64,000 nucleotides of DNA, taken from assembly GCA_977020255.1 (NCBI GenBank), contig CDROCS010001491.1, positions 1,612,001 through 1,676,000 on the forward strand, given 5' to 3'. The notes under the pieces are model-generated. The model saw only the letters and a list, made by a program, of their open reading frames with translations. It searched no databases and was not told the DNA's origin. This DNA is from Obrimoposthia wandeli. Its lineage: Eukaryota. Positions 4,601-64,000 of this stretch are shown one piece after another. The position numbers and the translations under genes were made by a program. Within the stretch, counting starts at the first letter, position 1, and each line of letters begins with the position of its first letter.

Positions 4601-7600
4601 TTATGTTTTAACATTTTTAGAGCACTTGCCCAACTCAACCCAGGAATGCTAAAAAAGTTAAGTGGTTCTAAACCATCTTCACTGAGAGCTTTTCTTCTGA
4701 ATGTTTGAAACACGTCAGCTAATAAATATACGTCAGTCTTTAAGTAAACTAACATATAATCAACATATTTCTACAATTGGTTATTTTCCAAACATCTTGT
4801 GCTTTTTGATATTCAGTGTCTGTGATTTTATCATTCCATTTTATTGGTAAACTTAACTTATTCTGGAGGACTTTTAATGATGTAGCAAAATCATATGGGA
4901 ATATTCCTTTGCCATCAATAAGTTTAGATAGAAAAACTGATCTTGTTAATGGAATAATTGGTAATTTACTGGCTAAATTTTCCAAAGATGATTGTAAAAA
5001 TTGCAAAGAATCTATAAATCTCAGAGTTATTTGACCTAATCTTACAATCATGGCTTGAAACTTTTCCGTTGATTGTGGTATAATATTTATATCCCAGTCA
5101 GTAAATTTATTCAATGCATGTTTTAAAATATGATGTAAATCATAACCTCTGAGATTATGAAACACAATAGGTAAAGTTGGACGAAGTTTTCTTGATAAAT
5201 TACATTCATTGCATGCAGGACCTAAATACTTGCCAGTAAAGTGATCATGATCTTTAACATATTTTTCAGATGATTCGTGACATAAATAACATTCAACGGT
5301 ATTGTTAAATGTATGAATCTCTGCATTTGTTAAGGGAATCATTACGTTTTTAAGAGCATCTAAATACCATGGCAAAACCTTTTCTTTAGCCAAGTTCTCT
5401 ATTGACTGAAGAAATTTAACTATGCAGTCATCACCAACATTATATCAATTTCATCTGTACTCATAAATAACATACCAGATGCGACAGGCATATGCTTTTG
5501 ATGATAACTCTCATCTGGTACTAATACAGATTCAAAATCAGCGTAAACGACATATTTCGGTGATATAGTTTTTGACCAATCATTGAATTTAACGTACTTA
5601 TTCTTAGGCATAGTATACATTGTAGTGCTTTCTTGATTATAGTCACATAAAACTTTATGCTTTTCTAATGACAAATCGGTTTTGAAACCATGTAAACACT
5701 TTTCACACCATTTTCTGCTAATTCTAGTCGTTCCAGTTCGAATATTTAATAGTCGGTTAAGACAACTTATTCCTATATAATGAAACCGTTCCTTGGATTC
5801 TAGTAACAATAAATTAACTATAGTTCCTTCCTTCATTTTTGATTTGTATGCAACATCGATATAAGGATTCTTGATAACATCAGTTTTTGATTCTTTTTCA
5901 CTTACCTCGTTGAATATGAATACATTTATTATTATACCAGGATTTTGCAGTTCAAATTTTGATATATTTGATATTTTCATTGGCATGTCTTCGGAATTAT
6001 ATACAAAATCATTTAAAAATCTTTCATAGTTGCTTGGTCTATTTCTATGTGATTCTATTTCATTATATTTAAGTATTGACAATATTGCATAAATAAAGCA
6101 AAGATTATCAGAGTTTAGAATATTTATGACTACTTTAGATTTTGTAAGAGAATTTGGTGATTTAATATATGAATGACCTGACAATGCACAAATTTGACTA
6201 TATTTAGTAACAATAAATGCATATTCAAGTATATTCATCAATTTCCAACCACTACCTTTTTCTGAATATTCTTCAACTTTATTTTCCATTGTATCTTCCA
6301 TTTCTGAAATTATAGCATGTGAAAAAATCATTGCTCGATGCGAAGCATACCATTCTTTAGTTTCTCCATCATTCTTTTCAAACCTCATTCTAATGATGTA
6401 TTGTATCTTTGCTTTTCCCATTAATTGTACTATTCTTTCTAGTTCGTTTAATAATGAAACTGGAACCTTAAGACTTACAAGATTGAGATGATCTACTTTC
6501 ATGGATATCATTGAATAACTATTTTCTAACGATGTTTTAGTATGTATATTGTCATTTATTTTACGTTTTCGTGACGGAGTAGGAGCTGAAATTACTATGT
6601 TTGATGGTTCATTAATTATATCAGTTCTTTTGCTTAAAGCCGGTACTTTAAATAATTTTTTCTTACTATCATTTTCATATTCTTTTAAATGACTAACATG
6701 TCGACTATAAAATAAGTTGTAATCAACATTTTCAGTGCTTAAACATTGTGGACATATGAAATAATTTATCCTTTTGTATGAATAACCAAAATATTTTTTC
6801 ATTATATCATGACATACTTGAGGATTAAAATGTGTATCCGAATAACAAAAATTTGAATAAGTTTTACATATACTCATCTGATGATATGATTGATTTGATT
6901 GGACTTGAGATATTGATTGATTTGTAGACTGAATAAAAAAAATATATAAATACAATAATTTAATTATTTTACTTACAATGTTAACAAATATTAATTATAA
7001 AGGAATTTGCTTAGATGATGTATCCAAATTAAAATTTCGAACACGACCAGAACAATACGTTTATAAAGCCAAAGATTATACAATACTTATTTTTAGAAAT
7101 AAGAAATGCAGGATTATGGGATGTAAGGTACCTATTAAAAATATTTCTTACCCTTTAAGGATAAATATACTTGGTATTCAATCAATTACGATATGTGAAA
7201 ATTTAGATCAAAGTATCAATCTATTTAAATTATGGAATGTGTTACGTAATACATGTTCATTTGACCCTGAGGTTTTCCCAGGCTTAAGATTAAATATTTT
7301 CAATCCATTATGTGTAAATATTTTCACATCTGGAAAGGTCGTAATTTTAGGTCTTAGAAATTTAGATTTTCAAAATCAAGTTAACGATATCATGACATAC
7401 ATTAAAAAAAATTATATAAATACGAAACAATTTCTAATTAAATCATTCAATTTTAAATGTCTTATAAAGCCGTTCAAAAGTATTACGAGTATGATATGTT
7501 CTTCTTGGCATCTGCATGGATTCATCCAATGACTATGCCAGTGACATTATCGAAAACTTTGTACAATTACCGAGTCTCTGATTTTGACGACAAAGACATT

Positions 7601-10600: not shown

Positions 10601-13600
10601 TTGACATAAATAAAAATATTCATGCTAAAATGAGAATTACAATTTATTATTTAGCTGAATATGAATACGAAATAAAATTTAATCAAAATTATTTGATACA
10701 AGATAGTTCTTCATTATGTAATATTATAGCCAGTAAATGTAATGAAATTTTTAAAAGCTGTAATATAGATTCAGACGGATTATTTGATATTTTAATAAAG
10801 AAAAATGTAAAATCAGTTTTATTTGACGAAAAACTTGCATCTTTATTAGGTTTAAATAATGTTTTCTTTGAGAAACGAATTAAAGGTTTTCAAAAACCAA
10901 CACTTTCTAACTCATATAATCAAATGTATATTTATACTAGTTTAACAGATTCTGTCTTAGTAGGATCTGATTATGTTCCACTGTTAAAGTCTATTTGGTT
11001 AAAATCATTAAAATATCGATATGGAGATGTAGTAAATGTTAAAATTGATAATCCAATGTACTTGAAAATGAGAGATTCAAGTATTAATAGAATCGAGGTA
11101 AATATACGTGATGATTCTGGTAATTTAATTCCATTTTCATATGGAGCAAAAAAACTAGTTTAACTCTTCATTTACGTAAAGTATAAACAATATAAATATA
11201 TTTAAAATATAAACATATATAAAATGAATACATCAATTATAAAATTTTATAGCAAAAGTCAACAGGGCGGTGAACTTCCCTATTTCATTGGTAAACAATA
11301 TGGATCTGGTTGGTATCAAACTATTTCTAGATTAGCTATTCCATTTATTAAAAAATTTGGTTTATCAGCAGCTACAAGTGCTGCCAATGTAATTGGTGAA
11401 ACGGTAGGAACTGCGTTAACAAATCCAAAAAACATAATTTCATCTCTCAAAGAAAATACAATCAAAGAAGTCAAAACTTTGATTCCAAAATTAAAAAATA
11501 ATGCTGTTGAGAGTTTAAATAAAGTCGCAAATTGTGTTGAACAAAATGGAAGGGTCTTAAACGTAAAAGAAATAATTTAAATAGTATAAACAAACGTCTT
11601 AAAGGTACTATTTTCCAAAAATGACTAGTATAAAATCTGAATTGTGTATTTTCGATAGATCACTACCTCAAGTAGTGATTGAAAATTCAAGTTTTGAAGA
11701 AATATTTCCAATCAATTCAATTACTGGAAAAAATTTAAATGACATAGAATTTAATATTCATGCATCTGAAGAAGATTATCTGGATTTGAATGATACTTTG
11801 TTAAATATTAAATTAAAAGTTGTAAATGAAGATGGTACTGATTTAATGAAAGATAGCGATGTAACTCCAGAGAATTACATGTTTCAAACTTTGTTTAGAG
11901 ATGTTATTCTAACACTTAATAATGTAAAGGTTGAAGGAGGAAATGGAACGTATACTCATAAGGCTATATTCGATACTCTTTTGAATTTTAGTAGTGATAC
12001 CAAGTATACTAACCTTGAATGTTCCGGGTATGATGATGATGCAGAAAGTCGTAAACAATGGATTAGTGAATCTAAAATATTTTCATTGTGTAATTCAATT
12101 AGATTAGATTTCTTTGATCAACCAAAATATTTGATTCCAGGGATTAATGTTCATTTGAGATTTATGAGAAATCAGCATAATTTTTCGCTCTATTCAGAAA
12201 CTTCAAAACCAATTATTCAAATTCTAGATGCTAGATTGTATGTTAGAAGAGTAAAAGTTGATTCTTCAGTAATGATTGGACATCAGTTAGGTTTGCAAAG
12301 TCAGAATGCAGTTTACCCAATTAGAAAAACTCAGTTAGTAACATATTCAATTCCTCAGGGTTCTTTAGAACTTAATAAAGATCAAATATTCGGAGACTAT
12401 CGTTTACCCAAGTTCATTTTGATTGCTTTCAAAGATACACCTCAGGGTGGTAAGGAATACAAAGTTAAATCTTCTACGTTCAATACATTTAATGTTTCAA
12501 CAATATCATTAGCTAAAAATACAGATTATCGAGAAACTTATAATCTAGATAATAATAATTTTTCATTAGCATATATGCAGTCAATTATTCGAAATATGAA
12601 TATTTTAGATAAAAACGTGAATAATGGTATCAGATTTTCTGATTTTAAATCAGGAAGTTCGATTTTCACTTTTCTATTAGCACCAGATTTTGATATAAAC
12701 ACTACTCAAGTGCCTAAAACTGGTAATTTAAGACTTGAAATTAGATTTAATTCTCCTTTGACCGTTCCAACAAGTGTTTTGATTTACGGAATATTTGATT
12801 CCGAAATTCAGATTACGAAAAATAAAACTGTGATTGTATGAAGTAAGCTTATTGTATATTATATTCTTTATTTAAATTAGTACTTTAGAAATTTATAAAT
12901 CCGGAAAAATATTATTGAATAACAAATTTAATGGAGTATATTCATTGGATAAAATTCCATCATTAAAACCCGGAGGCTACATTATCAATACTCATACTTC
13001 AAATCTACCAGGCGAACATTGGATAGCAATATTCGTTGACAGATTCGAGTGTTTGACCCTTTTGGATTCTATTATCCTTCAAAGTTGGTGTCTACACTTG
13101 AAAAAGAAAACATTCCAGTCTACTATAATCGAGTTAAATGTCAGAATCCATTAACTAAAAACTGCGGACCTCTGAGTCTTTTATGGTTGAAACTTCAACA
13201 CAAATAATTTGAAGTATAAACAAATATATCATTATAGTATTTCATTTTATTTTTTCAAATGGCTTTTATTGATTTAGAATGTTTTATTGATAATAATGGA
13301 GAATATATTCCAAAGGAATTATGTATAATGTATGTGAATGATATGACTTGTCCATTTCATTACGTGTTTAAAAATCAAATACCATGGAGTAGTTTATCAT
13401 TTACAGTTAAAAGAAAAAATCTATATTTGATAAATCATCATCATCAGTTATCCTGGTTTGAAGGTGAAAGCTCTGATATTCATATTGATGATGTTGAAAC
13501 AATATTCTATGTTATGGATTCTATTGATGGAAAGAAAATTAATTTAGTGAAACGAATGTTTCCAAATTTAAGAATTGTGAATTATAATAAAAGTTTCAAA

Positions 13601-16600
13601 AATTTAAAGAAAATGCCAAAAAATATTCGATGTCCGTTTAGAAAACACGGAAAACATTGTGCTTATTTGAAATGTTTTTCTCTATGTATTGATTATGTAA
13701 ATTGTATATAAATATATTTATTAAGGATATTTATTTTAATATATAATTTATGTTATTTAAATAAATTTTATCATATTTCTTTAGATGTGTAAGCCTAGGA
13801 AAAAACTTTGATCTAAATTTTCACATAGAATAGTGTATGTATGATTACGTAATACATTCCTTAACTGATAAGAGTGAACTTTAGTCTAAATTTTCACATA
13901 GAATAGTGTGTGTGTGTTAAAAACCACATTCCTTAACTGATAAGAGTGAACTTTATCCTAAATTTTCATTATGGACGATCATAGTGGTATACCAAAGAAG
14001 GGTGAAGACTAGACCACTTGACCCTTTGAATTATGGACGATCATAGTGGTTAGCCAAAAGAAGGGTGGATACTAGACCACAAGAGAAGGGTGGAGACTAA
14101 GCCACTTGACCCTTTGAATTAGTGTTAGCCAAAAAGAAGGGTGGAGACTAGATCACAAAAAGAAGGGTGGAGACTAAGCCACTTGACCCTTTGAATTAGT
14201 GGTTAGCCAAAAAGAAGGGTGGAGACTAGACCACAAAAAGAAGGGTGGAGACTAAGCCACTTGACCCTTTGAATTAGTGGTTAGCCAAAAAGAAAGGTGG
14301 AGACTAGACCACAAAAAGAAGGGTGGAGACTAAGCCACTTGACCCTTTGAATTAGTGGTTAGCCAAAAAGAAGGGTGGAGACTAGACCACAAAAAGAAGG
14401 GTGGAGACTAGATCACAAAAAGAAGGGTGGAGACTAAGCCACTTGACCCTTTAACCTATGGACGACCATAGTGGTTAGCCAAAAAAAAGGGTGGAGACTA
14501 AGCCACTTGACCCTTTAACCTATGGACGACCATAGTGGTATATCAAAGAAGGGTGGAGTCTAAGCCACTTGACCCCTCCCCTCCCCCTCCCCCTCCTCCC
14601 TAAAGGGTGTCACACCATAAGGGTGTCTTGCCACACCATAAGGGTATATGTTGCCTCACCAGAGGTGAGGCAACATATACCCTTATGGTGTGGCAAGACA
14701 TCCTTATGGTGTGACACCCTTTAGGGGGGGGTCAAGTGGCTTAGACTCCATCCTTCTACCTACTTAGTTTAAATTGGTTTTTTAATGAGATTTAATGAGA
14801 AACACGCTTTTCCTATTCGAGTGTCATATTTTACGTTGAGGTTTCAAAATGTATTTTAAATGGTCGTTAGTCAAACAAGAACGTACTTTTTTATTGAAGT
14901 TCATGATGGAGAATGTCTGCTAACATTTGTAGGTGCTGCCAAAAAGACAGAACAGTTTCATTGCGGGATCTATAAAAAAAATGTACTTTTTACCATCCAA
15001 ATTTTTGTAGAAATCCTTTAAATCCTTCTCTGTGTTTATTTCGTTACATTACCGAACATTGCTGTTCAATAACTTCCCACTGTCTCTCTGGATCAACAGA
15101 AAAAGTATCTTCAATTAGTTTTAATTGAATGTCTTCCATAGTAGATAAAGTAAATCCTTTTCCAAATTATTCAATCAATAAGTCAATTTGCTTTACAAAA
15201 TTTTCACCCAAGTCGATGGGTTTTTCTGAGGAGTATGCAGAGCACACGTGAGAAATTTTGCCTTTCATCAACTGAGTCCTGAAAAGATTCAATTGCATTT
15301 GAAAACTATTTACTATTGCAAACATTTCAAATACAAATCGATACTTCCCCTCAAACTGTTTATTCACATTATTCAGATGTTTTGTAATATCTCAAAAGAA
15401 AAAATATCCTAATTCCAAGCTTCTACTTTGAGCTCAAGGAATTTTTGTGGTTCTTTTTCAAGGACATTAGTTATTTCTTCTTTCAATGTGACAAAACGCT
15501 GAAGTACTCGTCCACAACCCAACCATCTCGTATGCCAGTGTATGGTAAAGTAAGTTGATGCACTCTAAAAGTTATATGTTTGAGTCCATCTAGATCGGAT
15601 GTAATTTCTCGAAAATAGGCGGAATTCTCGAGTTTTTTACATTAATTGATTACTGAGATTTGAGGAAATGTCAGTTATTCTTCTCTGTATAGTCATTCTT
15701 GATAGACTGACATTCTCTAATAATCTTTTTTTCTGAGCATAATCACGTAACAGCTATTAGCATACACTTCTTTGCAAACTCACCTTTTGTAAAATATTTC
15801 CCAGCAGCAGCAATTTCCCTTGAAATTTGTAAGGTTATGTTGGTACCTGTCTTATTTTGTGTAAATGTTCTTGAACATTTGTGGTATTTAAGATAGATGC
15901 TTTGATTTTTTTTTACCTTTTGATTCAAATTGGAGGGAATGTGATGTTTGGTTTTAAAGTGGAATTGAAGATCGTATTCCTTCGCAATTACTGTCGTTTC
16001 ACGACATACGAGACAAGTTATTTTGTCTTTGAACATAGAAACATATATTTGTTCGTCCATTCTGTTTCTATTTTTCTTTTTTTGTCATGCTCATGGTTAA
16101 AAATAACTGTAGAAATAAACATACACATAAACAAATATTTCGTTTTGTAATTTATTTCCATTAAAATTAATAATCATATAAATATTATATTTTAAAGTCA
16201 AATTATTGAAGTTTTGAAATAAATCATTTGTTATAACAAAATAATATACAAAAATCATATTCAATTTAAAAAAAAAAATTTTAGAAGATTTTTTCCATTC
16301 CTCATATTCGTAATGTTATAATAATATAACTACTGCGGTCCGTTTGTTGTGCAGGTCTGGGTTAACCCAATAAAATTATAAAAATATTAACAATTAATTC
16401 AAAACGATAACTGTAAATTTCAGCAGGATTTAGGCTTTACATTTTCATAGGGTAATTATATATTTTAACTAATTATTATTAAATCTATGTAATTAAATGT
16501 ATTAATAAAGTATTTTGTTTTTGTTTACTTTCAATATTAATGTATTTTGTATATAAATTAATATAATTATTAAATTTTTAAATTAATTAGTTATTAACAT

Positions 16601-48529: not shown

Positions 48530-50041
48530 GGTCGCGAATGGGATGGTCTCACTCCCTATGCTACTCCAACTTCGATAGCAGACAATACAGTGCCTGGACC
48601 ATTCAGAAGGCCACAATCTTCGATACGTGATTTTAGGAGAATAAAGGCGACGAATGAGGTTAGACTTAATTTATTTCAAATGTTTTTAAATTTCATTTTC
48701 AGAATCTTCAACTAGCTATAACACCGTCAGTGACCACGGCGGAGAGACTGATTGAACCTCAATACATGGTGAGTCAATCCAGCCAGGAAGAGCCGAGGAG
48801 TGAATACCAATACCTACCGACTCCGAATAATATTGAGGTAAATTATTTTAAATTAGATAATAATTTTAATTATTCACATAGGAAGCAGACTTGGTAGAGG
48901 AAGTTCTGGAGGAGGCAACCCTCAAACTATCCCTGGATAGGAGGCAGGAGGTGGTGAGGAAACCGCGACGACATCAGGTGAAAACATCAACAGTCCACAG
49001 GAAGAAGGCAAAGTTGGTGAAACAGGCAAACCTGCCTGTTATTGAGGTAAATTACTAATATACTTAAATTTTATTAATGCTTTTTTTGCAGGAACCTGCA
49101 ACACTTATTGAAGATGGTTTAGAGAGGCCACAACAATTCCAGGGATGTGGAAGCAGAAGGCAGTGGTACAAAAAACCAAACGCATTAGAAAGGCGAAAAA
49201 CAATATTCTCCAGTCTACCGAGACATCAATGGAGCATCAGGATAAACTTCCTTATACTATTATTGAGGTAAATTTTAAAATTTTAAAATATTTTATTAAT
49301 TATAATTTTTTATAATATTTTACTAATATTTTTTTAATGCAGGGTCCTTTAAAGGTAATTGAGGATACTTGGGGAGAAATTTCTCCTTTCCCGCAGAAAC
49401 GGACGAAGCGAACAGAGGTGCGGAAGACGAAACGCTCGAGAAAATGTCGCACCACAATGCTCATTTTTCTGAGGTGGGGATTGGCCAGCAGGAGATTCTC
49501 CCATCTCCAGTAGACGACGGACCAATTATGTACGAGATGATACCAGTCAACGACCCCTGCAGGAGACGGCACCAGCTCCATTAAACATCAGCCAAAATTT
49601 GGCCAGGGCTTGGGAGACTGCTTCTCCTCGTCCAACAACCAGCCAGAACTTGAAGAGGGTCTGGGATGAAGCTGGATTGGACGAATTCCTGGCGGAATTG
49701 GATACTCCGCAACCGGCAATGCTTCCAGATTCGCGAGGGCAGCAGGATGCCGTCTCATCCCAGCTTCAGCGCGAGGAGAAATTGAAGAAAGCTCCGCAGT
49801 AAAGGAAGGCTACAACTTCTTCATCGTTGCTATCAACATTGGCTGCACCTCCTCCCAAAACGTTGCGGCAACTACTGCCAAAACCTCAGGAAAGGTCAAT
49901 TAATGCACAGCAACCGGTGCAGCCGAAAAAGAAGCCAGTGTCGCTTACTCCTATAACACTCAGTCGGAGGGATATCGATGAGGTTGATCCCAACAAAGAC
50001 TTTGTGAAGTGTTTTGGAAAGAATATACCTTGTAAAAAATA
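48530..50041 (+). pseudogene. Multi-exon gene for a disordered protein (SQNLxRxW / LDEFLAEL family), block A copy
   Basis: Exons 48530-48658, 48703-48837, 48882-49046, 49092-49267, 49343-50041. Four phase-0 introns of 44, 44, 45 and 75 nt. Frameshifts and a TAA in the later exons. Confidence 0.7.
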
Positions 50042-50416
50042 ATTTTATGTGTTTTGTTTTATTTTTAAATTTTTATATTTTTTTTTTACAAATTTAGAAA
50101 TATTAAAATACAATCATAAATTTACTAAAATATAAAGTTGAAAAATAAAAAAAATAGGTAACTTATTCGAATGTGATAGGATTAATTAATAATAAAATTC
50201 TACATGTCTTCAAACTTCTTTAATTTCAAAAAGATAAGTATTAAATTTATATAGAAATGCAATGATTAGTTATTGATTTATTAAATTATAAACTCTCATT
50301 TGATAAATAAAAGTATATCATTTAATTGAATGTGATAAGATCAAAAATATTTTAAATTTATATATATAGGCTCAAATTTATTAACCTCTTCATAAATAAA
50401 ATTGAAATTTACTTAA

Positions 50417-50700
50417 ATGCAAAGTTTCGTGACGAAAATAGAAGAAATTATCAGAAGAAATGATAAGAAAGGAGATTTAAGAAAAAGGATCCTCAATCAG
50501 AATCTTTACGTTGTTGTCGCGACTGAGTAGAATCGTCGGGTGGTGATTCTAGACAGACGTCCAGCAGAACGACAACGGATCCTGGATTTTAATAGGAAGA
50601 AAGAATTGGAGTAAAGGAAACTGGATGAAAAAATAATAGTGTAGATGGCGGACAATCGCCGAGCAGCAAGAAAGAGAATCCTCCAGATTAAACCTGAATT
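50417..50700 (+). pseudogene. Degenerate paralog of the 55621-55941 coiled-coil (SERTA-like?) gene
   Basis: MQSFVTKIEEIIRRNDKKGDLRKRILNQNLYVVVATE*NRR. Confidence 0.75.
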
Positions 50701-51138
50701 TTTGAAAATTATTTTTTCTTTTTATCTTATTGATTATTTTTGTGTTACATAATTGTATAAATATTTTACATAACTTTACTAAATATAAACAATTTTATAT
50801 ATAATGTTTTTTTATAATATAGATCATAAAATAAATTGGAATAAATTATTCATTAAATTATCTCCAGATGTAATGGAAGATTATGAAAAAAAATTATATC
50901 TCAAAAAATTATACTCCTGAAATTGTTGCAAATAAAATATGTAATTTACTTTCCAAATATTTAGGTAGGTTTACATTTAATATAATTTATTTTAATATTC
51001 ATAGGAGAATTGAAAATATGTACCAATCTAAGGAGAAAAATGAATCCTGAGTATTTTGATATTTTAAAACATTTTGATAATTGGTTTTTTATTTTTATTC
51101 GTTATAAACAAAGGGATTTGTTACTTATATGTGTAATT

Positions 51139-51432
51139 ATGCAAGAATATATCATAGACTTTGAAGCTTTCATTAACAAAAATGGAGAATATATTATAAA
51201 AGAATTATGTATTATGGATATATGCGACGTTTTCCATCCTTTGCATTTCATATTTCATATAGATATCCCGTTTAGGAGTTTAGATTATAAGAAAAAGTTT
51301 ACTAATTTATATCTAACTAATTATTTTCATTTATTAAAATGCAAAGGAAAACATAAGGCTTTTTGTAAATATGTATTTTCGATACAATTAAATCTAATTT
51401 TGATATTAAAAATAGATTATTTTATGTTTTAG
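51139..51432 (+). pseudogene. Truncated DEDD exonuclease-like gene, block A copy
   Basis: MQEYIIDFEAFINKNGEYIIKELCI, near-identical to 56076; internally deleted. TATAAACA 36 nt upstream. Confidence 0.75.
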
Positions 51433-51717
51433 ATGAAATGTATGGTTAAAGTGAAAGAAAAAACACCAACACTCTTTCAAAATTTTCCAACAAAATTCCA
51501 CCTGTACATCAACATCCTCTTGGTTGGGTTCTATTATGATGAACTTTGTGAATTGTCTTCTGTATACAGGCCAACGAGGGTATGTTGGATGAGGAAACTC
51601 TCCATAAGTTCTGATCCATTTTGATAAACACTCCTCGTGGTATAGGTGGTTGCAGGCATTGGGTCTTGTTCTTCGTTCTGGTATATTTTCTAAACATATT
51701 GGACATTCCTCAGACAT
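51406..51717 (-). CDS. RING-H2 E3 ligase-like protein (C-terminal ligand pair decayed)
   Basis: CPICLE..ACNHLYHEECLSKW..RWPVYRRQF (C3H2C3 pattern with the last CxxC mutated). Confidence 0.7.
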   Translation of the reverse strand: MSEECPICLENIPERRTRPNACNHLYHEECLSKWIRTYGEFPHPTYPRWPVYRRQFTKFIIIEPNQEDVDVQVEFCWKILKECWCFFFHFNHTFHLKHKIIYF

Positions 51718-52958
51718 TCTAAATATATGATAACGATTAATTTCTGCATGGTTTCTACATAATTCTACACTTGTTTTTTACAATTACTTCTACAACATTT
51801 CTACATATTTTTATACACTAATTTATCTACAACCTACTCTGACTTGTCATGTCTTGATGGGAGGCAGAGGCAAGGGTTGCAATTCCACTTCCTCCATCAT
51901 GGGTGTGTTACAGAATCGCAGCTCTTTGCATCTCTAGAGATTACGGCCATTACGATAAAAGCATTGACTGGTGTCATTCAGCTGTCTGAGGATTGATAAT
52001 CGTACTTACTTTTGATGTTTGTCGGGTTGAATGGCGTTTCGAGTGGTGCTGTTTGGTTTCCGTGTATTATTTTCGATCTTTTGATAATTCACGGTTTCAG
52101 ACTTATTGTTTATTGTCTAAGTGATATTATTATTCGATATTTGAAATCCAGTGGAATCGTTCCCTTTACTCTTCTCCTCTAGATGATTGTGCTTTGGTTT
52201 CTGGAATTGGGCTATCTTCCTTTCACCTTTGCCTTTTTTATGATTGTGTTTGGTTTCCCGGGATGGAATTTCCTGGGTCTGATTCTCGTACCTATTCGAT
52301 TAAATTGACTTGTCTGGTACTTTAGAGTTACATAGTATATTTGATTTGTTATTACAATGATTACAGTAGAGGTTTCTTAGCATCACTGGGAATTCGGTTA
52401 CATGTACACTCGGCATCATAATGTGGTATCAAAATTTGGGGTTGTATTGCGAATTTGATTCTGTCATCTGGATTGGGACACGCCACTGTTACCTTGTCAG
52501 TTTCCAGCAGTCTGAAAAACAGGTTAATGGAATTCCATACGGTTTTACGTCGTTTACCTATGACCATAATCCTGTCAAAAACTTTCCAGGTACGCTCGTC
52601 AGTAGACAATATTACTGATTTTGTTCGGATAACTTGGATAATCCGTTTTCTTTTAGATATAGTTATTTGTAGATATAACATATTTTCATAATAGAATAGG
52701 ATCAGTCGGTAGTAAAGTGTATGATTGTCAATCTATATTTTAATATCGCAGATAACGTATAATTTTTTGATCAACATTTTCAGTTGCGGATGTTTGTAGT
52801 TGAATGTCTAATATGTGATTTCTTTTTAGTAAAAGTATTTCTATGTATAGCGCTCGTATCGTATCTTGTATCCATTAACTGACAATGATCTCGTAACCAG
52901 CTTCGGTCGTGGTGACTTGTATGACCAAAATGATTCCTATTATTGTCCGGTTCCGAAT

Positions 52959-54852: not shown

Positions 54853-55277
54853 ATTCGCCAAAACTTTAAGAGGGCCTGGGATGACGCTGGTTTGGACGAA
54901 TTCCTGGCGGAACTGGATACACCGGCAATGCTTCCAGATTCGCGAGGGCAACATGATGCCATCTCACGCCAGCTTCAGCGTGAGAAGGAGGAGAAACAGA
55001 AGAAAGCTCCGCGGAAGAGGAAGGCTACTGCTTCTATGTCGGGCCATCAACATCGGCTGCACCTCCTCCCAAAATGTTGCGGCAACTATTGCCAAAACCT
55101 GAGGGAAGGACAATTGCTGTACAGCAACCGGTGAAGCCGAAAAAGAAACTGGGCCGGCCAAAGAAGAAGGAACCAGTACCGCTTTCTCCTATCAAAATAA
55201 GTCGGAGGGAATACGACCCGGATGATCCCAATGAAGACTTCGTAAGGATTTTCAAAAATATAATTTATAAACATTAG
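54853..55277 (+). pseudogene. 3' part of the SQNLxRxW / LDEFLAEL gene, block B copy
   Basis: RQNFKRAWDDAGLDEFLAELDTPAMLPDSRGQ...LRQLLPKP..ISRREYDPDDPNEDFV, paralogous to 49650-50041. Confidence 0.8.
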
Positions 55278-55620
55278 TTTCTTGTGTTGTCTTTTTATTA
55301 TTATTTATTTTAGAATTTAGTAATATTAAAATATACTACTTAAGTTTATTAAAATAACAAGGTTAAAAATAAATTTTAGAATTTAGTAATATTAAAATAT
55401 CCTCCGTAAGTTTATTAAAATAAAGTTAACTTATTCGAATGTGATTGGATTGTTAAGGAATAAATAAAAAAAATTAGGATTAAATATAAATGCAATGATT
55501 AGATATATATTTATTAAACTTCTATTTGATAAATATATTTTAATTGCTTGTGATTGGATTAAAATTATCTTTAATTTATATATATAGGTTCAAATTTCTT
55601 AACATCTTCATAATTAAAAA

Positions 55621-55941
55621 ATGGAATTTATTAAAATGCAAAGTTTGGTGACGAAGATCGAGGCAAATATAAGAATAAATGAGAAGAAAGGAGATTTACG
55701 AAAGAGGATCCTCAACCAGAATTTATATACTGCTGTCGCGACCGAGTGGAATCGTCGGGTGGAGATTCAGGACAGGCGGCTAGCAGAACGACGTCGGGTT
55801 GTGGAGTGGAACAAGAAAATCGAAATGGAAAAAAAGAAGGTGGAGGAAAAAAGAAGAGAAGAGACGGAGGATGTTCGGCGAGCAGTAAGAAAGCGAATCC
55901 TCCAGATTAAACCGGAAGAGGGTCCTTCCACAAAAAAATAA
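55621..55941 (+). CDS. Small charged coiled-coil protein, N-terminus resembling a SERTA domain
   Basis: Intact 106-aa ORF; SLVTKIE..EKKGDLRKRILNQNLYTAVATE. Confidence 0.65.
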   Translation: MEFIKMQSLVTKIEANIRINEKKGDLRKRILNQNLYTAVATEWNRRVEIQDRRLAERRRVVEWNKKIEMEKKKVEEKRREETEDVRRAVRKRILQIKPEEGPSTKK

Positions 55942-56075
55942 ATTTTATAGATTATTATTTTGTCTTTATTGATTATGTTATAAAATTGTCTAAATACTAC
56001 CTCGTCATTTTAATAAATTTTTGATTAATAGTTTTTCGTTATAAACAACGGGATTTGCTACAAATTTGGGTAATT

Positions 56076-56564
56076 ATGCAGGAATATATCATAGATTTTG
56101 AGGCTTTCATTAACAAAAATGGGGATTATATTATAAAAGAATTATGTATTATGGATGTATGCGACGTTTTTCATCCTTTGCATTTCATATTTCATATAGA
56201 TATCTCATTTAAAAGTTTAGATTATAAGAAAAAATTTACTAATTTATATCTAACTAAATATTTCTATTTATTAAAATGGAAAGAAGGACATAAGGCTTTT
56301 TGTGAAATATGTATTTTCGATACTATTAAATCTAATTTTGAAATTGAAAATGGAATTTTTTATGTTTTAGATGACATGGATGGCAAAAAATATAAGACTT
56401 TAAAAAAATATTTTCCTAAAGTGAGGTTGAATACTTTAAATATTTCACGTGATCATCTATTAAATATTCCACAAAATATTTGCTGTCCATATCGTAATCA
56501 TGGTGACCATTGCACATATAAAAAATGTTTAAGTCTTTCTTATTATTACTTGACATGTAGATAA
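56076..56564 (+). CDS. DEDD/DnaQ-like exonuclease-fold protein (homolog of 13259-13711)
   Basis: IIDFEAFINKNGDYIIKELCI...CPYRNHGDHCTYKKC. ATG at 56076, TATAAACA at 56040. Confidence 0.75.
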   Translation: MQEYIIDFEAFINKNGDYIIKELCIMDVCDVFHPLHFIFHIDISFKSLDYKKKFTNLYLTKYFYLLKWKEGHKAFCEICIFDTIKSNFEIENGIFYVLDDMDGKKYKTLKKYFPKVRLNTLNISRDHLLNIPQNICCPYRNHGDHCTYKKCLSLSYYYLTCR

Positions 56565-56825
56565 ACAATTCTTCTAATTGGAGGAATTCATTATTAAAAT
56601 TTTACAATTATTTACAAATAAGCCTTTTGATTGGAGGAATAAAATTTTTTTCAACCTATAATATATGAATAATCCTTCTCTTTAATTGGAGGAATAAAAT
56701 TTTTTTTTCAACCTATAATAGATAAACAATCCTTCTCTTTAATTGGAGGAATACATTTTTTTTTCAACCAATAACAGATAAACAATCCTTCTCAGTGGAG
56801 GAATAAATTCAATTTTTTAATCCAA
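56562..56825 (+). repeat. Array of five ~55-bp direct repeats with core TGGAGGAAT upstream of the Zn-finger/PolB gene
   Basis: Core at 56579, 56632, 56687, 56744 and 56796; TATATAAG at ~56857. Confidence 0.8.
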
Positions 56826-56904
56826 TAGGAAAAGAGCATGTGTGCATAAATTTTAGTATATAAGCAAACACTTTCTTCATTTAAATCCCCGACAATTTGA
56901 AATA

Positions 56905-59900
56905 ATGCCTATGGTAAGAATTTATTTTTATTATTTCCTTATTAATATTTATTATTTCAGATTACGTGTAACCTATTCCCTGCGTATTGCTTTGCTTCGG
57001 CTCCGCATGGAGGAGAGTCCTGCATGGAGACAATGTCTGCATACTATCGGACAAAGTCTCAAGGTGTTCTGTTCTTCGTCTGCCCCTTCTGCAGAACAAT
57101 GGAGGAGAAGGAATTTCGAGAATTCTTCTGTGAACATCGAGCTCACCTATCGTGTTTCACGGCCAACAACAAGAAGAGGGATATCGTCCAATTGGTGCGC
57201 GATTCGCAGGCCGCTCCAGCTCCACCTCCAATTACAGTGGCAGTCAGTCTACCAGTTTATGGTCCTGCCATTGGTCCTTCTCTCCCGGCTCCTGATTCTG
57301 CTGCTTCCCCATCCACTCAAATGTCTAACAATGAGTGGATGAACGACATCTCCGAGGAAGATTTTGAGGAGTTGGCACCAGCAACCCAATTCTCAAACAA
57401 TGACTGGATGCGAAATATCACCCAGTCAGATTTCGAGATGGAGCAGCCTCAGTGGAGCGATAACTCATGGTTGGAGACCATCGAGGAATCCGACTTCGTC
57501 GAGTCAACGGACGACAGCTGGATGGATTCCATCAATGAAGAGGACTTCATTCCAGCTCAAAACTTGGATTGTCATCATTAGGTTTTTTTTTTTTTTTTTT
57601 TGTAAATTGTAATTATATATTTTATTTTTAATATATATATTTTATTTATATTATTTATTCAGGAAATACCGTTCTACAATCGTCATCTGCTACAACAGAT
57701 ATGCCTCCACCATCGCGAGTGCCTACATCGATGTTAGCACGCCTTAGAGGTAATAATTTTTAAAAATATATTTATTTTTTAATATATTTATTTCAGCAGC
57801 ACTAACTTCTACAACAGCCGCTTCTTCATCGGAAAGGTCAGCGGTCCCTTCAACATCATCTACAGTTGCCTCAACATCGGCAGCATCAACAATAGCAGCT
57901 GCTTCCACATCAGCTGCAATTGTCTCAACATCGGCAGTATCACCAATAGCAGCATCTTCAACCTCAGCTGCGATTGTCTCAACTATTAATATAAATAGTT
58001 GTCTTCCCGTTCAATTAGGGGGAGGTTTGTCAGCGACAAACGGAAGAAAGAGGCGAGGCCAATTTCTTAATAAGGTCCCACCCAAAAAACGTAGAGAAAA
58101 CGGTGCTACTATAGAGTATCACCTAAATAATAAATATGTTATAGTTAAGGTGCCATTAGGAAATGAAATTTTATTAAACGTAGTTGTAGATTCAAATATT
58201 GAAAATCTTTTAAAATCAGAAGTGACTAAATTAGGACAGGCTAAGGTTCAATTTTGCGCAACAGTGCAGTTTAAAAATGTCAATGAGGAAACTAAAACTT
58301 GGGTAATTTCACATAAAGCAACTGTTTTTTATGATAATTTTGTAACTGAAATTGGAAGAAATTGCTTTCTGTATAGCGTGTTGGCCATCCTCAAAAGGGA
58401 TGTAATTACTGAGCATAGAGAGCGTGTCAGTAAATATACCTCTTTTTTAAATGAATTGCAGTATCATGGAATAGATTTTCCTGTTAAATTAACTGCGATA
58501 TCAAGATTTGAACATCTTAATAACTTGAGTATTAATGTATTCAAATATAATACTGATATCCCAGTTAATGTAACAGATGAAGAAATTTTTAAAAATCCTT
58601 TTGTAGATGTAATTTATAGGAGCAAAAATGATCAGGTCAACTTAATTTTGCTCGAACATAATAATAAATTCCATTATGCTGCAATTCCCAGTTTAGATCG
58701 TCTTCTAAATTTAGATAATGGAGCCTTACCGGTTAGGATAAGGTGTAAGTGGTGTCATAGATGTTTGCATGGATTCCGATCCGAGCTCTCTTACAGCAAA
58801 CATCTGACATTATGTTCACTGAATCCTGATGACAATACGCTATATAGCATGCCTAAGGATAAGGATTTAAAATTCAGGGATTGGGCAAAATGCATACCCG
58901 TGGAATTCAGGGTGTATGCAGATTTTGAGTCAATTTTAGCATTGCACGACCAGTATGAGAGTATTCACCTACCGGCTTCGGCAGGACTACTATTCTTAGG
59001 CCCCAATATTACCCAGTATCATAAATTTTCCGGTCCAAATTGTATTTTAGATTTTATGTTAAAATTAGAGGAATTAGGAACAACAATTGTCAAACCGTGG
59101 TATGATCTCAATGCTCATCAAACAATGATCATGACAGGCATAGACTGGGTTAATTTTAATTCTTGTAGATTATGTTATTTGTGTGGAACCCAGTCTAAGT
59201 TAGTCAGAGATCACGATCATGTTACAGGGCGATACTTGGGAGCGGCGTGCAACCTTTGTAACCTTGGCCGTCGACTCCCTAAAAAACCACGCATTCCCAT
59301 CGTGTTTCATAACCTCAAAGGATATGATTTGCATCATATACTTAAATACGCGTTGGGTACATTAAGCTCTTGGGAAATTTCATGTATACCTCAAACTTGA
59401 GAGAAATATTTATCTTTAACTGCATATACTGAATTCTGCAGTTTAAGATTCATATATTCTCTGCAGTTTTTGAGCGGGTCTTTAAAAAATTTAACGGCAT
59501 CTTTAAATGCATGGCCAATTACACAGTCAGTGTTCCCAGCTTCGGTTAACGATAAGTGGATTTTTCCGTATAAATTTGCGAAAACTTTCGCAGATTTAGA
59601 AAATACAACTGAAATCCCACCCATAACTGAATTTGAGGTTGTAAGTCTTCAAGACTATAATGAGGCCCGTACATTTTGGGTGAATAATTGTCAAAATCTT
59701 CTCGAATATATGCTTTATTATATGAAGTTAGACATTTATCTTTTAGCTGATGTTTTTGAGTCCTTTCGTGTAAAGTCTTTAGCAGAAGATGGGCTAGATC
59801 CCATGCATTTCTTTAGTTTACCTGGTCTTTCATAGGCAACAGCAATAAAAACTCTTAAAATTAATATCGAGTTACTGCAAGATCCCGCGATGTATCAAAT

Positions 59901-61070
59901 GTATGATTATGGTATACGCGGTGGAATGACTTTTGTCAACAAACATCATGTTGTCAAAAATCAATCCACGGAGATTCTGTACATCGATATTAATAATTTG
60001 TATGGGTGGGCGCTTACTCAACCTACCGCATGCCAACTTTAAGTGGGTTTATGATGAGGAAGAGTTGAATAAGTTGATGACAGATTTGGCTACTGTTGAT
60101 ACAGTTTAATCCGACGTCGGCTATTTGGTTGAGGTGGACATAAATATCCTTCCCAATGTGCATGATAAATTAGATGATCTTCCAGTAGCGCCTGTTCATC
60201 AATGCCCACCTAATTCAAAGGTTAATAAATTATTGTTAACCCATGAAGACAAGTTGAATTATGTTGTGCATTGGCGGCTTCTTCAATTCTACTTAAAGTT
60301 GGGAACGAAAGTTACTCGAATTCATCGTGCTATAAGCTTCAGTCAAAACTTTGTGTTTAAAGACTATATTGAGAAGAATTCAAGAAAACGTAATTTGGCC
60401 ACTAGCAAATTCGATCGAGATTTTTACAAGTTAAAAAGTAATAGTCTCTTTGGAAAAACTGTAGAGGACTTGCGGAAACGTATTTGTCTACGGTTTTGCA
60501 ATGATGAGCGTAAACTAATAACATATACTAGCAAGTACAACTTCAAGCGTAGTTTTACAATTGCAGATGACTTGGTAGCAGTGTTATTAGGAAAACAGAG
60601 TATTTGTCTCGATCGACCGAGTTATATAGGTCAAACGGTTTTAGACATTTCTAAACTCAGAATGTATGAGCTTCAATACATAGAATTGGAGAAATATCGA
60701 CAAGAATTTGATTGTGAGATTAAAATCGCAGCTGGGGACACTGACTCTTTCTTTTTAGAATGTAGGAATGTTAGTTTAAATAATCAATTATTACCAGCAA
60801 TGTTTAGGGACAACTTACTAGATACCCATAAATATCCCGCTAACCATCCTCTACACTCTATGAGTTTAAAGGACATTATCGGGAAATTTAAGGATGAAAG
60901 CGAGGGACAGGTATCGTATGATGATTGTATTTTCCTACGCCCTAAATGATACAGTTTACATGCATCTAATAATACATGTTCAATGAGAGCAAAGGGTGTC
61001 GGAAGAAACAATCTTACACATGAGGCCTACCGGAAAGTTTATGATACTGGGTGTGTTGGGGTTTCTATAT
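56905..61070 (+). pseudogene. polB: Spliced Zn-finger / acidic-repeat / Ser-Ala-Thr linker / pPolB gene (exons 56905-56913, 56961-57581, 57663-57749, 57797-~61070)
   Basis: Introns of 47, 81 and 47 nt with GT-AG ends; exon 4 is in frame with ORF 58027. Pol motifs YADFES, VFHNLKGYD, YIDINNLYG, KLKSNSLFGK, AGDTDS. Nonsense codons at 59398, 59833 and 60947, frameshifts, an internal deletion and C-terminal truncation. Confidence 0.85.
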
Positions 61071-63334: not shown

Positions 63335-63748
63335 CTACTGCAGGATGCTCAGGTGCAGGCTCGGCCAGAATAGGAGGTGGATATCGAGTCCTTGCGAAGT
63401 GTGGTTGTGGAGCCACATTCGCCGAGCGAACTGCCACGAGTGGTGGTCGCGGCTAGACCACCACACCTCTCGGATATTGCGCTGCGCGTTGCGACGGCGC
63501 ACAGGGCAAACGGAACACTGACAGTGCTCGCCATCAATGCAGCTGGTGGGTGAGCGGGTGCCCTTTGGTCGTCCACGGCACTGGAGTGCCCATTCGGTAA
63601 AGGGTGCACGGCACATCGGGCATGTTATGTGGCCCGCGGACTGAGCTCTGGTCCACATATAGAGGCACGGCTCGTGGAATTTGTGCCGGCATCCGGCAGG
63701 GATTGCCGAGTAGAACCGAATATGCTCGAGGCATATTGAGCATAACAT
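63335..63748 (-). CDS. RING-H2 E3 ligase-like protein with a second Cys cluster
   Basis: CSICLE..GCRHKFHEPCLYMW..TCPMCRAPF (complete C3H2C3), then CIDGEHCQCSVC. Intronless GC-rich island. Confidence 0.82.
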   Translation of the reverse strand: MLCSICLEHIRFYSAIPAGCRHKFHEPCLYMWTRAQSAGHITCPMCRAPFTEWALQCRGRPKGTRSPTSCIDGEHCQCSVCPVRRRNAQRNIREVWWSSRDHHSWQFARRMWLHNHTSQGLDIHLLFWPSLHLSILQ

Positions 63749-64000
63749 CTGCACAATGGTAGGTTGGTTAATCACTTTTTTATTTGGGGTTTAAGGGAAT
63801 TTTATTCCTAAATTACAACTTTAATATTTTAAATTAATACTTTAACTTTAGTATTTTAACCTACCGAATTTTGTCTTTACTTTGGGCATATTTTTCGCAT
63901 TCTAAGCATAAAAAATTGTCTTTTGGAATTTTCAGTAAAATAATTACAATTTCAAATAAACATCAAACATAAAAATGGTAAAGGTCATTTTACAGTTTCA

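Follow-up and report, generated by a model that had tools for sequence, protein, structure and literature searches.

The locus and its two Polinton families

The window analysed here is a 64,000-nt part of a eukaryotic assembly of 1.35 Gb. At about 2.3-14.7 kb lies a Polinton that looks complete (element 1, family A); the forward strand at 54857..61058 contains a truncated and dead copy of a second family (family B). Matches of sister copies are confined to 54857-61058 (97-98% identity). No TIRs and no capsid, integrase or ATPase genes remain in the window copy of family B; its sisters carry TIRs, target duplication and the remaining genes. An older family B paralog lies at 48535-51445 (74-88% identical). 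The surroundings comprise a nuclear-receptor-like exon and LTR retroelements, a gene content that suggests an animal genome, and RING-finger frames adjoin Ty3/Gypsy-type remains at 51406-51777 and 63335-63790 (-), as well as at locus L021, where gag-, protease-, RT- and envelope-like frames and further Cys-rich motifs were found.

A DNA search of the genome placed family B at no fewer than 40 scored places (93-98% identity, window included), while the finger protein used as query returned at least 150 genome matches at 98-100%. Judging from these matches, family B is a high-copy family with at least 150 near-identical copies, and its polymerase gene appears to have kept three introns through the expansion. 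We examined 69 loci of young sisters, 65 of which could be mapped over all exons. The old paralog was used to find 20 further loci, 18 with finger or PolB and 2 without; the copies of this subfamily are old and decayed.

All three sisters examined for their ends begin and finish with the same AGTAG-led sequence, with inverted matches of 98-112 nt (89-93%), and a 6-bp target-site duplication is exact in two of them and has one mismatch in the third. Sister locus L033 contains an rve integrase (E 1.3e-09) and a chromodomain (E 8e-06), and the packaging ATPase matched Pox_A32 in element 1 (E 5e-05), with a 71% identical gene in L033. By these sequence characters (TIRs, 6-bp duplication, integrase and ATPase), family B is identified as a true Polinton. 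Two element 1 frames of capsid-like size and position, with 412 and 331 aa, have homologs in sisters (55-59% and 38-58% identical, respectively) and no Pfam or PDB sequence match. They may be the double and single jelly-roll capsid genes, a label suggested by size and position. No adenain-like maturation protease was matched in the subset of frames scanned. The description of Polinton core genes as intronless, which is not a strict criterion, does not hold here: three conserved intron-like stretches, presumably spliced, interrupt the polymerase gene.

Other genes accompany these elements. A TBP-like gene (PF00352, E 5.6e-12) is located at 6933-7532 (+) of the window and also in L025, L028 and L033, being present in both Polinton families; in element 1 it stands head to head with the polymerase gene. 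A conserved frame of 157-179 aa with a DxE motif at its start and no Pfam match was found in the window at 56025-56564, 51079-51445 and 13238-13711; we assume that it is exonuclease-like. In family B it precedes the polymerase, and in element 1 it occupies the far end. The left arm of family B carries a cargo gene (window 48535-50000, remnant at 54857-55240; L032 6263-8410) in which the scan found mini-introns of 44, 45 and 75 nt, and whose product is an acidic/basic low-complexity protein without Pfam match. Among host genes, a chaperonin gene has an AT-rich intron of 85 nt. Besides intron-containing CCT genes, the genome has no fewer than 20 chaperonin-like open frames (PF00118; about 545-585 aa) that lack introns and are spread over different contigs (e.g. 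L118-L124); they would be retrocopies or mobile-element cargo.

Predicted exons and introns of the polymerase leader

The family B polymerase gene is preceded by a TATA-like box, TATATAA (56857..56863, +), 48 nt 5' of the start codon. Of 66 young copies 64 keep the box, a putative promoter element, as do 11 of the 14 old ones. Still further 5', at 56570-56818, lie four to five tandem units of about 55 nt with ATTGG/CCAAT and GATAA motifs, the number of units differing between copies.

Coding exon 1 (56905..56913, +) consists of the ATG, which supplies the start codon, and two further codons; it is 9 nt long in all 65 mapped sisters and keeps the ATG in 64. Intron 1 follows (56914..56960, +; 47 nt, phase 0, GC 0.13). 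Exon 2 (56961..57581, +) encodes the zinc finger, a Pro/Ala/Ser spacer and four acidic repeats. The first of these is a Cys/His domain, C-x6-C-x4-H-x5-C ... C-P-x-C-x14-H-x2-H (56967..57146, +), predicted to bind zinc and belonging to no Pfam family; the repeats, W-[ML]-x-x-I-x-[EQ]-x-D-F (57327..57545, +), were read directly and are retained in old copies. Intron 2 (57582..57662, +; 81 nt, GC 0.06) has phase 1 in the sisters and varies from 53 to 84 nt in young and from 52 to 92 nt in old copies. Its donor is weak and T-rich in the young family and mostly a stronger GTA in the old one. Exon 3 (57663..57749, +) is a 29-codon Ser/Thr/Pro linker with two conserved Met, 87 nt long in 62 of 65 young sisters and 81, 87 or 93 nt in the 11 old copies that could be anchored. 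Intron 3 (57750..57796, +; 47 nt, GC 0.06, phase 1) would, if retained, lead to a stop in 61 of 65 young copies. The start of exon 4 (57797..58089, +) is a Ser/Ala/Thr linker with a basic cluster that may act as an NLS; a 54-nt in-frame length variant of this linker region recurs among sisters.

The three introns that the first-pass annotation had placed at 56914-56960, 57582-57662 and 57750-57796 are all present. Each is bounded by GT..AG and has 6-13% GC, against 44-49% GC in exons 1-3. All of them were found again when AT-rich islands bounded by GT..AG were sought automatically, with one overlapping alternative donor for intron 3. Exon 4 is likewise open from 57797 into the PolB N-terminus, as had been claimed (ORF 57757-59400). 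Contigs of 4 public runs (one sample, of unknown kind) cover intron 1 evenly, and its joint is absent among the 15 of 81 joints listed from these contigs. No processed copies were found in the genome with two short junction probes.

The frame in sister copies

The phases 0/1/1 are found in 57 of the 65 mapped sisters, and 53 keep all seven start and splice dinucleotides. With these phases, the 3-codon exon 1, the finger with its acidic repeats and the Ser/Ala/Thr linker are joined to the terminal-protein (TP), OTU and polymerase domains. The frame is open through every exon to 58090 in 23 of 65 mapped sisters, a sample in which intact copies are over-represented since the sisters were the best search matches. 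Non-triplet indels make up 85 of 104 events in introns vs 23 of 69 in exons; these events are not independent, and the contrast is a trend rather than a test, because the triplet events of exons include paired artefacts of the alignment and repeated counts of a single inherited 54-nt variant.

The window copy itself does not join. Its exon 2 ends in phase 0 on a TAG directly before donor 2, whereas 59 of 65 mapped sisters show phase 1 at this point; one sister (L069) also has phase 0, owing to a second indel of its own. A frameshift at 57555..57565 (+) brings the TAG at 57579-57581 in frame. The addition of one A to the run at about 57559-57562 had been proposed as the repair needed here, to be checked by accurate reads over that run. 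A frameshift indeed exists, with the contigs of all 4 public runs showing the sister state, but it is not a one-base loss: an identical frame-shifting indel of another kind near 57,559 sets each of the 67 sisters that span the site apart from the window copy. By this comparison the window copy is the odd one, and the frameshift is read as a defect of a dead copy. The same holds for the TAG at 57579, once suggested as the source of a free regulator, which is out of frame in the sisters and is a product of damage; a free regulator made by this stop is not supported. The window copy also lacks a segment at 58361/58362, is interrupted by stops at 59398, 59833 and 60947 and near 60023 by a frameshift, and its ends are cut, at 61058 on the polymerase side. 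As its sequence reads, it is dead several times over.

An older subfamily and selection on the proposed frame

The 18 loci of the old subfamily show about 75-86% DNA identity over the leader and have all three introns at the same places as the young family. Intron 1 has phase 0 at both borders in 15 of 15 anchored copies. For intron 2 the phase is kept at 11 of 14 donors and 12 of 12 acceptors, and for intron 3 at 15 of 15 donors (phase 1) and 7 of 10 acceptors. In one copy of about 67% identity, introns 1 and 3 still have their GT..AG and intron 2 its acceptor. A more distant degraded copy (L098) has an ATG-GTAAG..AG stretch before the finger, a weak indication from a single copy, and no AT-rich stretch between finger and terminal protein. 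The introns of family B have accompanied the element in its copying through two or more expansions.

We calculated net dN/dS as the divergence between 16 young and 12 old copies, without significance test. In the proposed frame the values are 0.17 for the finger, 0.32 for the spacer and acidic repeats, 0.67 for exon 3 (28 codons), 0.46 for the exon 4 linker and 0.17 for the terminal-protein side. In the two other frames they range from 0.72 to 5.65, the 0.72 belonging to exon 3 in frame +1. All five coding parts are therefore below 1 in the proposed frame, with the weakest signal of selection in exon 3. Introns 1 and 3 equal or exceed the exons in conservation between subfamilies (0.075 and 0.082 mismatches), which is not the usual pattern of introns and may be explained by AT-richness and alignment.

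Since the window copy and many sisters are broken, the AT-rich stretches could be thought of as spacers or decay products of dead elements and not introns at all. We find this barely credible: subfamilies that differ by 14-25% retain GT/AG and phase, as does the copy of about 67% identity, the selection acts on a frame that splicing alone gives, and exon 4 would otherwise be left without a start codon.

The predicted zinc finger and intronless relatives

The finger positions C3, C10, C21, C41, P42, C44, F55, H59, H62 and L63 are invariant in 16 rows, and zinc binding is predicted from this Cys/His pattern. The domain does not have the profile of classical C2H2 fingers (PF00096, C-x2-4-C-x12-H-x3-5-H) and has no Pfam match; its spacing is C-x2-C-x14-H-x2-H, preceded by a second C-C-H-C group. 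Sequence matches were found neither in Pfam and PDB nor by word-based protein search, in Atlas, in viral contigs or in metagenome contigs (P0018 as query). The structure model of the finger (pLDDT 76) gave no fold match at E <= 0.001, with a best Z of 2.7 and a weak resemblance to Kaiso/CTCF fingers only at E > 3; null searches of this kind do not establish a new fold.

The PolB frame of element 1 has a homologous finger at its N-terminus (6620..6877, -), and no intron separates this finger from the polymerase. It shares the Cys/His spacing of the exon 2 finger (E=1e-10) and the frame runs on into the OTU/exonuclease part (E=3e-62), which bears out the earlier statement that finger and PolB are contiguous in this element. 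Among the best 150 matches of family A, 18 are in open frames of at least 1200 aa (not read individually). Just 5' of the element 1 finger ORF, a 48-nt GTAAGT..TTCAG stretch (6976-6929, -) is a possible 5' untranslated intron.

A search of the full library with the finger yielded 29 proteins. The motif is present, once or repeatedly, in 27 of them; P0001 and P0028, which are repetitive and do not have it, were dropped. The frames of P0013, P0015, P0018, P0019, P0021 and P0027 stop shortly behind the finger, in tails that are hydrophobic and resemble introns. The finger is contiguous with PolB, with no intron, in 4 of 42 public proteins scanned: P0030 (1286 aa), P0031, P0033 and P0035. All four have the finger directly before the terminal-protein domain, and the last three are among the five closest long PolB relatives; in P0005, P0022 and P0026 it is followed by terminal-protein-like sequence. 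In P0004, P0010, P0011, P0012 and P0017 the finger occurs two or three times in tandem, in some cases preceded by classical C2H2 fingers. None of 7 viral-contig PolB loci was matched by the finger profile. In the PolB tree, from which 3 short rows of 47 were left out, families A and B and P0031-P0036 form one clade of 8 rows (support 100/98), 5 of which have the finger. We suggest that the finger is an uncatalogued Cys/His domain at the N-terminus of such polymerases, common to different hosts.

One family B copy (L089, 2986-4851; 1 of the 150 matches listed) has finger and PolB in one 621-aa frame with introns 2 and 3 deleted. We rejected it as a case of intron loss, as a single microhomology deletion also removes exon 3 and coding sequence.

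Start codons and the status of intron 2

Exon 2 has no Met before codon 22, a position already past three of the conserved Cys, and the finger therefore depends on intron 1 for its start codon. No Met precedes the terminal-protein domain in exon 4 in 55 of 57 young copies, and PolB thus needs intron 3. The Met pair of exon 3 is kept in 65 and 64 of 67 young and in 13 and 14 of 15 old copies; PolB could therefore start there, which makes intron 2 the weakest link.

The locus could accordingly hold two genes, a finger/acidic protein of exons 1-2 that ends within "intron 2" and a polymerase starting at an exon 3 Met, with only intron 3 used. The conserved Met pair and the weak donor 2 fit such an arrangement, as do an in-frame stop inside the retained intron in 54 of 65 young copies and an ATTAAA in 8 of 14 old ones (0 of 64 young), and adintoviruses, in the text available of PMC8502044, often have a separate Cys-rich "Oncoid" gene 5' of PolB. 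We nevertheless regard it as very improbable. No stop is fixed, 11 of 65 copies being stop-free in intron 2, whose length varies freely; the acceptor phase is kept in all 12 old copies; the stretch of exon 3 ahead of its first Met contains no stop in any of 15 old copies and changes by whole codons; intron 2 has an AATAAA in none of 64 young and none of 14 old copies; and finger and PolB share one frame in family A and in the four public proteins. Sisters that consistently ended the finger ORF at 57581 with a polyA site had been named in the first-pass annotation as the finding that would speak for separate genes; the sisters continue. Intron 2 as an intron is supported by its acceptor phase, the stop-free, whole-codon exon 3, the missing fixed stop and AATAAA, and the intronless relatives.

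Both products may also arise from one locus, full splicing giving the replicase and retention of the weak intron 2 giving a free finger/acidic regulator. The T-rich donor 2 of the young family and the stop reached on retention in those 54 copies are compatible with this, and the acidic repeats are, as we take it, similar to activation motifs. On the other hand, the retained form would have a variable, unconserved tail, 11 of 65 copies would read on, and old copies mostly have the stronger GTA donor, which leaves this possibility rather improbable in our view.

Polymerase domains

The terminal-protein and OTU-like protease domains occupy 58090..58700 (+), the segment spanning their boundary being the one missing at 58361/58362. 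They are followed at 58701..61058 (+) by an exonuclease with an endonuclease-VII-like insert and the polymerase core, both broken here, with matches to PF02945 and PF03175. For the latter, separate pieces of the window copy gave E 5.7e-09 and 8.5e-04. A structure model was built from the natural frame of a sister (pLDDT 85). Its terminal-protein part has the PolIV little-finger fold of 4ir1 (Z 8.3, rmsd 2.4, 91 aligned), the best match of this domain here and a structure with which TP is also compared in PMC11161782, as far as its text goes. Residues 150-281 match many OTU folds at Z 7-7.9 (top Z 7.9, rmsd 3.3, 93 aligned), and C170 and H275 of this domain are nearly invariant in 47 rows. The N-terminal OTU-like domain with Cys and His, a trait of alpha-class adintovirus PolB, is thus present. 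Overall, the model matches adintovirus, MELD and bidnavirus-type PolB, and the modelled domain order would be TP-vOTU, as in PMC11161782.

Proposed expression and comparison with known systems

Taken together, the results suggest that the locus is the 5' end of a protein-primed DNA polymerase gene, in which host splicing of three mini-introns likely joins a leader of about 310 residues to the TP, OTU, exonuclease and polymerase domains. The intron-containing Polinton polymerase with a finger/acidic/low-complexity leader, as first proposed, is backed by the sisters, the diverged subfamily, codon selection and intronless relatives. By comparison the leader introns seem real and are well supported, their splicing being inferred from these data. 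Transcription by host RNA polymerase II would begin downstream of the conserved TATA-like box, and the spliceosome would remove the three introns to give one polyprotein; judging from the DNA, this part of the scheme is very probable. In size the leader introns resemble those of the host chaperonin gene (85 nt) and of the cargo gene (44, 45 and 75 nt). The later steps are speculative and rather doubtful: under the model of PMC11161782, cleavage by the OTU domain on the far side of the terminal protein would leave leader and TP on the genome ends, where the finger might bind element DNA and the acidic repeats might recruit host nuclear proteins. An unlikely extension is a replicase under host splicing control, with the leader as a built-in regulator of a new zinc-binding fold and acidic activation repeats, staying with TP on the genome ends or freed by intron 2 retention, and the locus switching between "regulator only" and "replicase" in an adenovirus-like way.

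Polinton core genes have been described as intron-free and annotated as plain ORFs, and family B implies that such genes are truncated in annotations. The element would, in addition, require nuclear transcription and a host capable of splicing introns of 47 nt. The splice junctions could serve as a simple RNA read-out for the timing of Polinton replicase expression.

In element context family B is like known Polintons, with TIRs, 6-bp duplication, rve integrase with chromodomain and A32-like ATPase. Its polymerase shares the TP fold, the OTU domain with Cys and His and the PF03175 core with the pPolB of Polintons and adintoviruses as described in the text available of Krupovic et al. 2024 (PMC11161782) and Starrett et al. 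2021 (PMC8502044). The former names only two globular domains (D1 and D2) in the N-terminal region and gives the order TP-vOTU-Exo-Palm, and its main text contains neither "zinc" nor "intron". Family B differs from that pPolB in having about 310 more residues ahead of TP, among them a finger that belongs to no Pfam family, and three introns, inferred to be of the spliceosomal type. The best structural match of the TP-OTU part (E 6e-24) is A0A7D4VFN9 of Drosophila-associated adintovirus 2, a "C2H2-type domain-containing protein", and zinc fingers linked with PolB N-termini are thus already on record in databases. A0A7D4VFN9 and the more distant PolBs P0040, P0041 and P0043, the latter at their start, carry classical C2H2 fingers, while the family B finger misses PF00096 and its profile misses them.

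In the Polinton, Maverick and adintovirus literature, within the text available of each source, we found no account of introns in a Polinton polymerase or of the family B finger, including 10.1101/2023.08.22.554363, PMC12220804 and 10.64898/2026.10.13.758929; spliced PolB models may exist in supplementary genome maps (PMC8502044, 10.1101/2024.03.25.586562), in Repbase entries or in closed-access papers. The core genes of vertebrate and nematode Mavericks, polymerase included, are stated to be intronless in passages of PMC8097293 and 10.1101/2022.07.12.499685. According to the same passages, nematode Mavericks have intron-containing cargo genes beside the left TIR, and family B does likewise; unlike in these Mavericks, its polymerase is an interrupted gene. 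The dinoflagellate polinton-like proviruses that bear introners are similar in having introns inside the element. Most of those introns, in the portion available of PMC11957031, are transposon-derived and post-integration, whereas those of family B are copied with the element.

Adenovirus E2B offers a further likeness, which should be taken as an analogy: related replication genes are made there by splicing. From the text available, pTP of HAdV-37 is annotated with a first coding exon of 9 nt (PMC2397415), as long as exon 1 of family B, and the pTP and Ad-pol mRNAs share 5' exons (PMC11304566). The adenovirus differs in that its TP is a separate protein, its intron is kilobases long and it has no finger leader.
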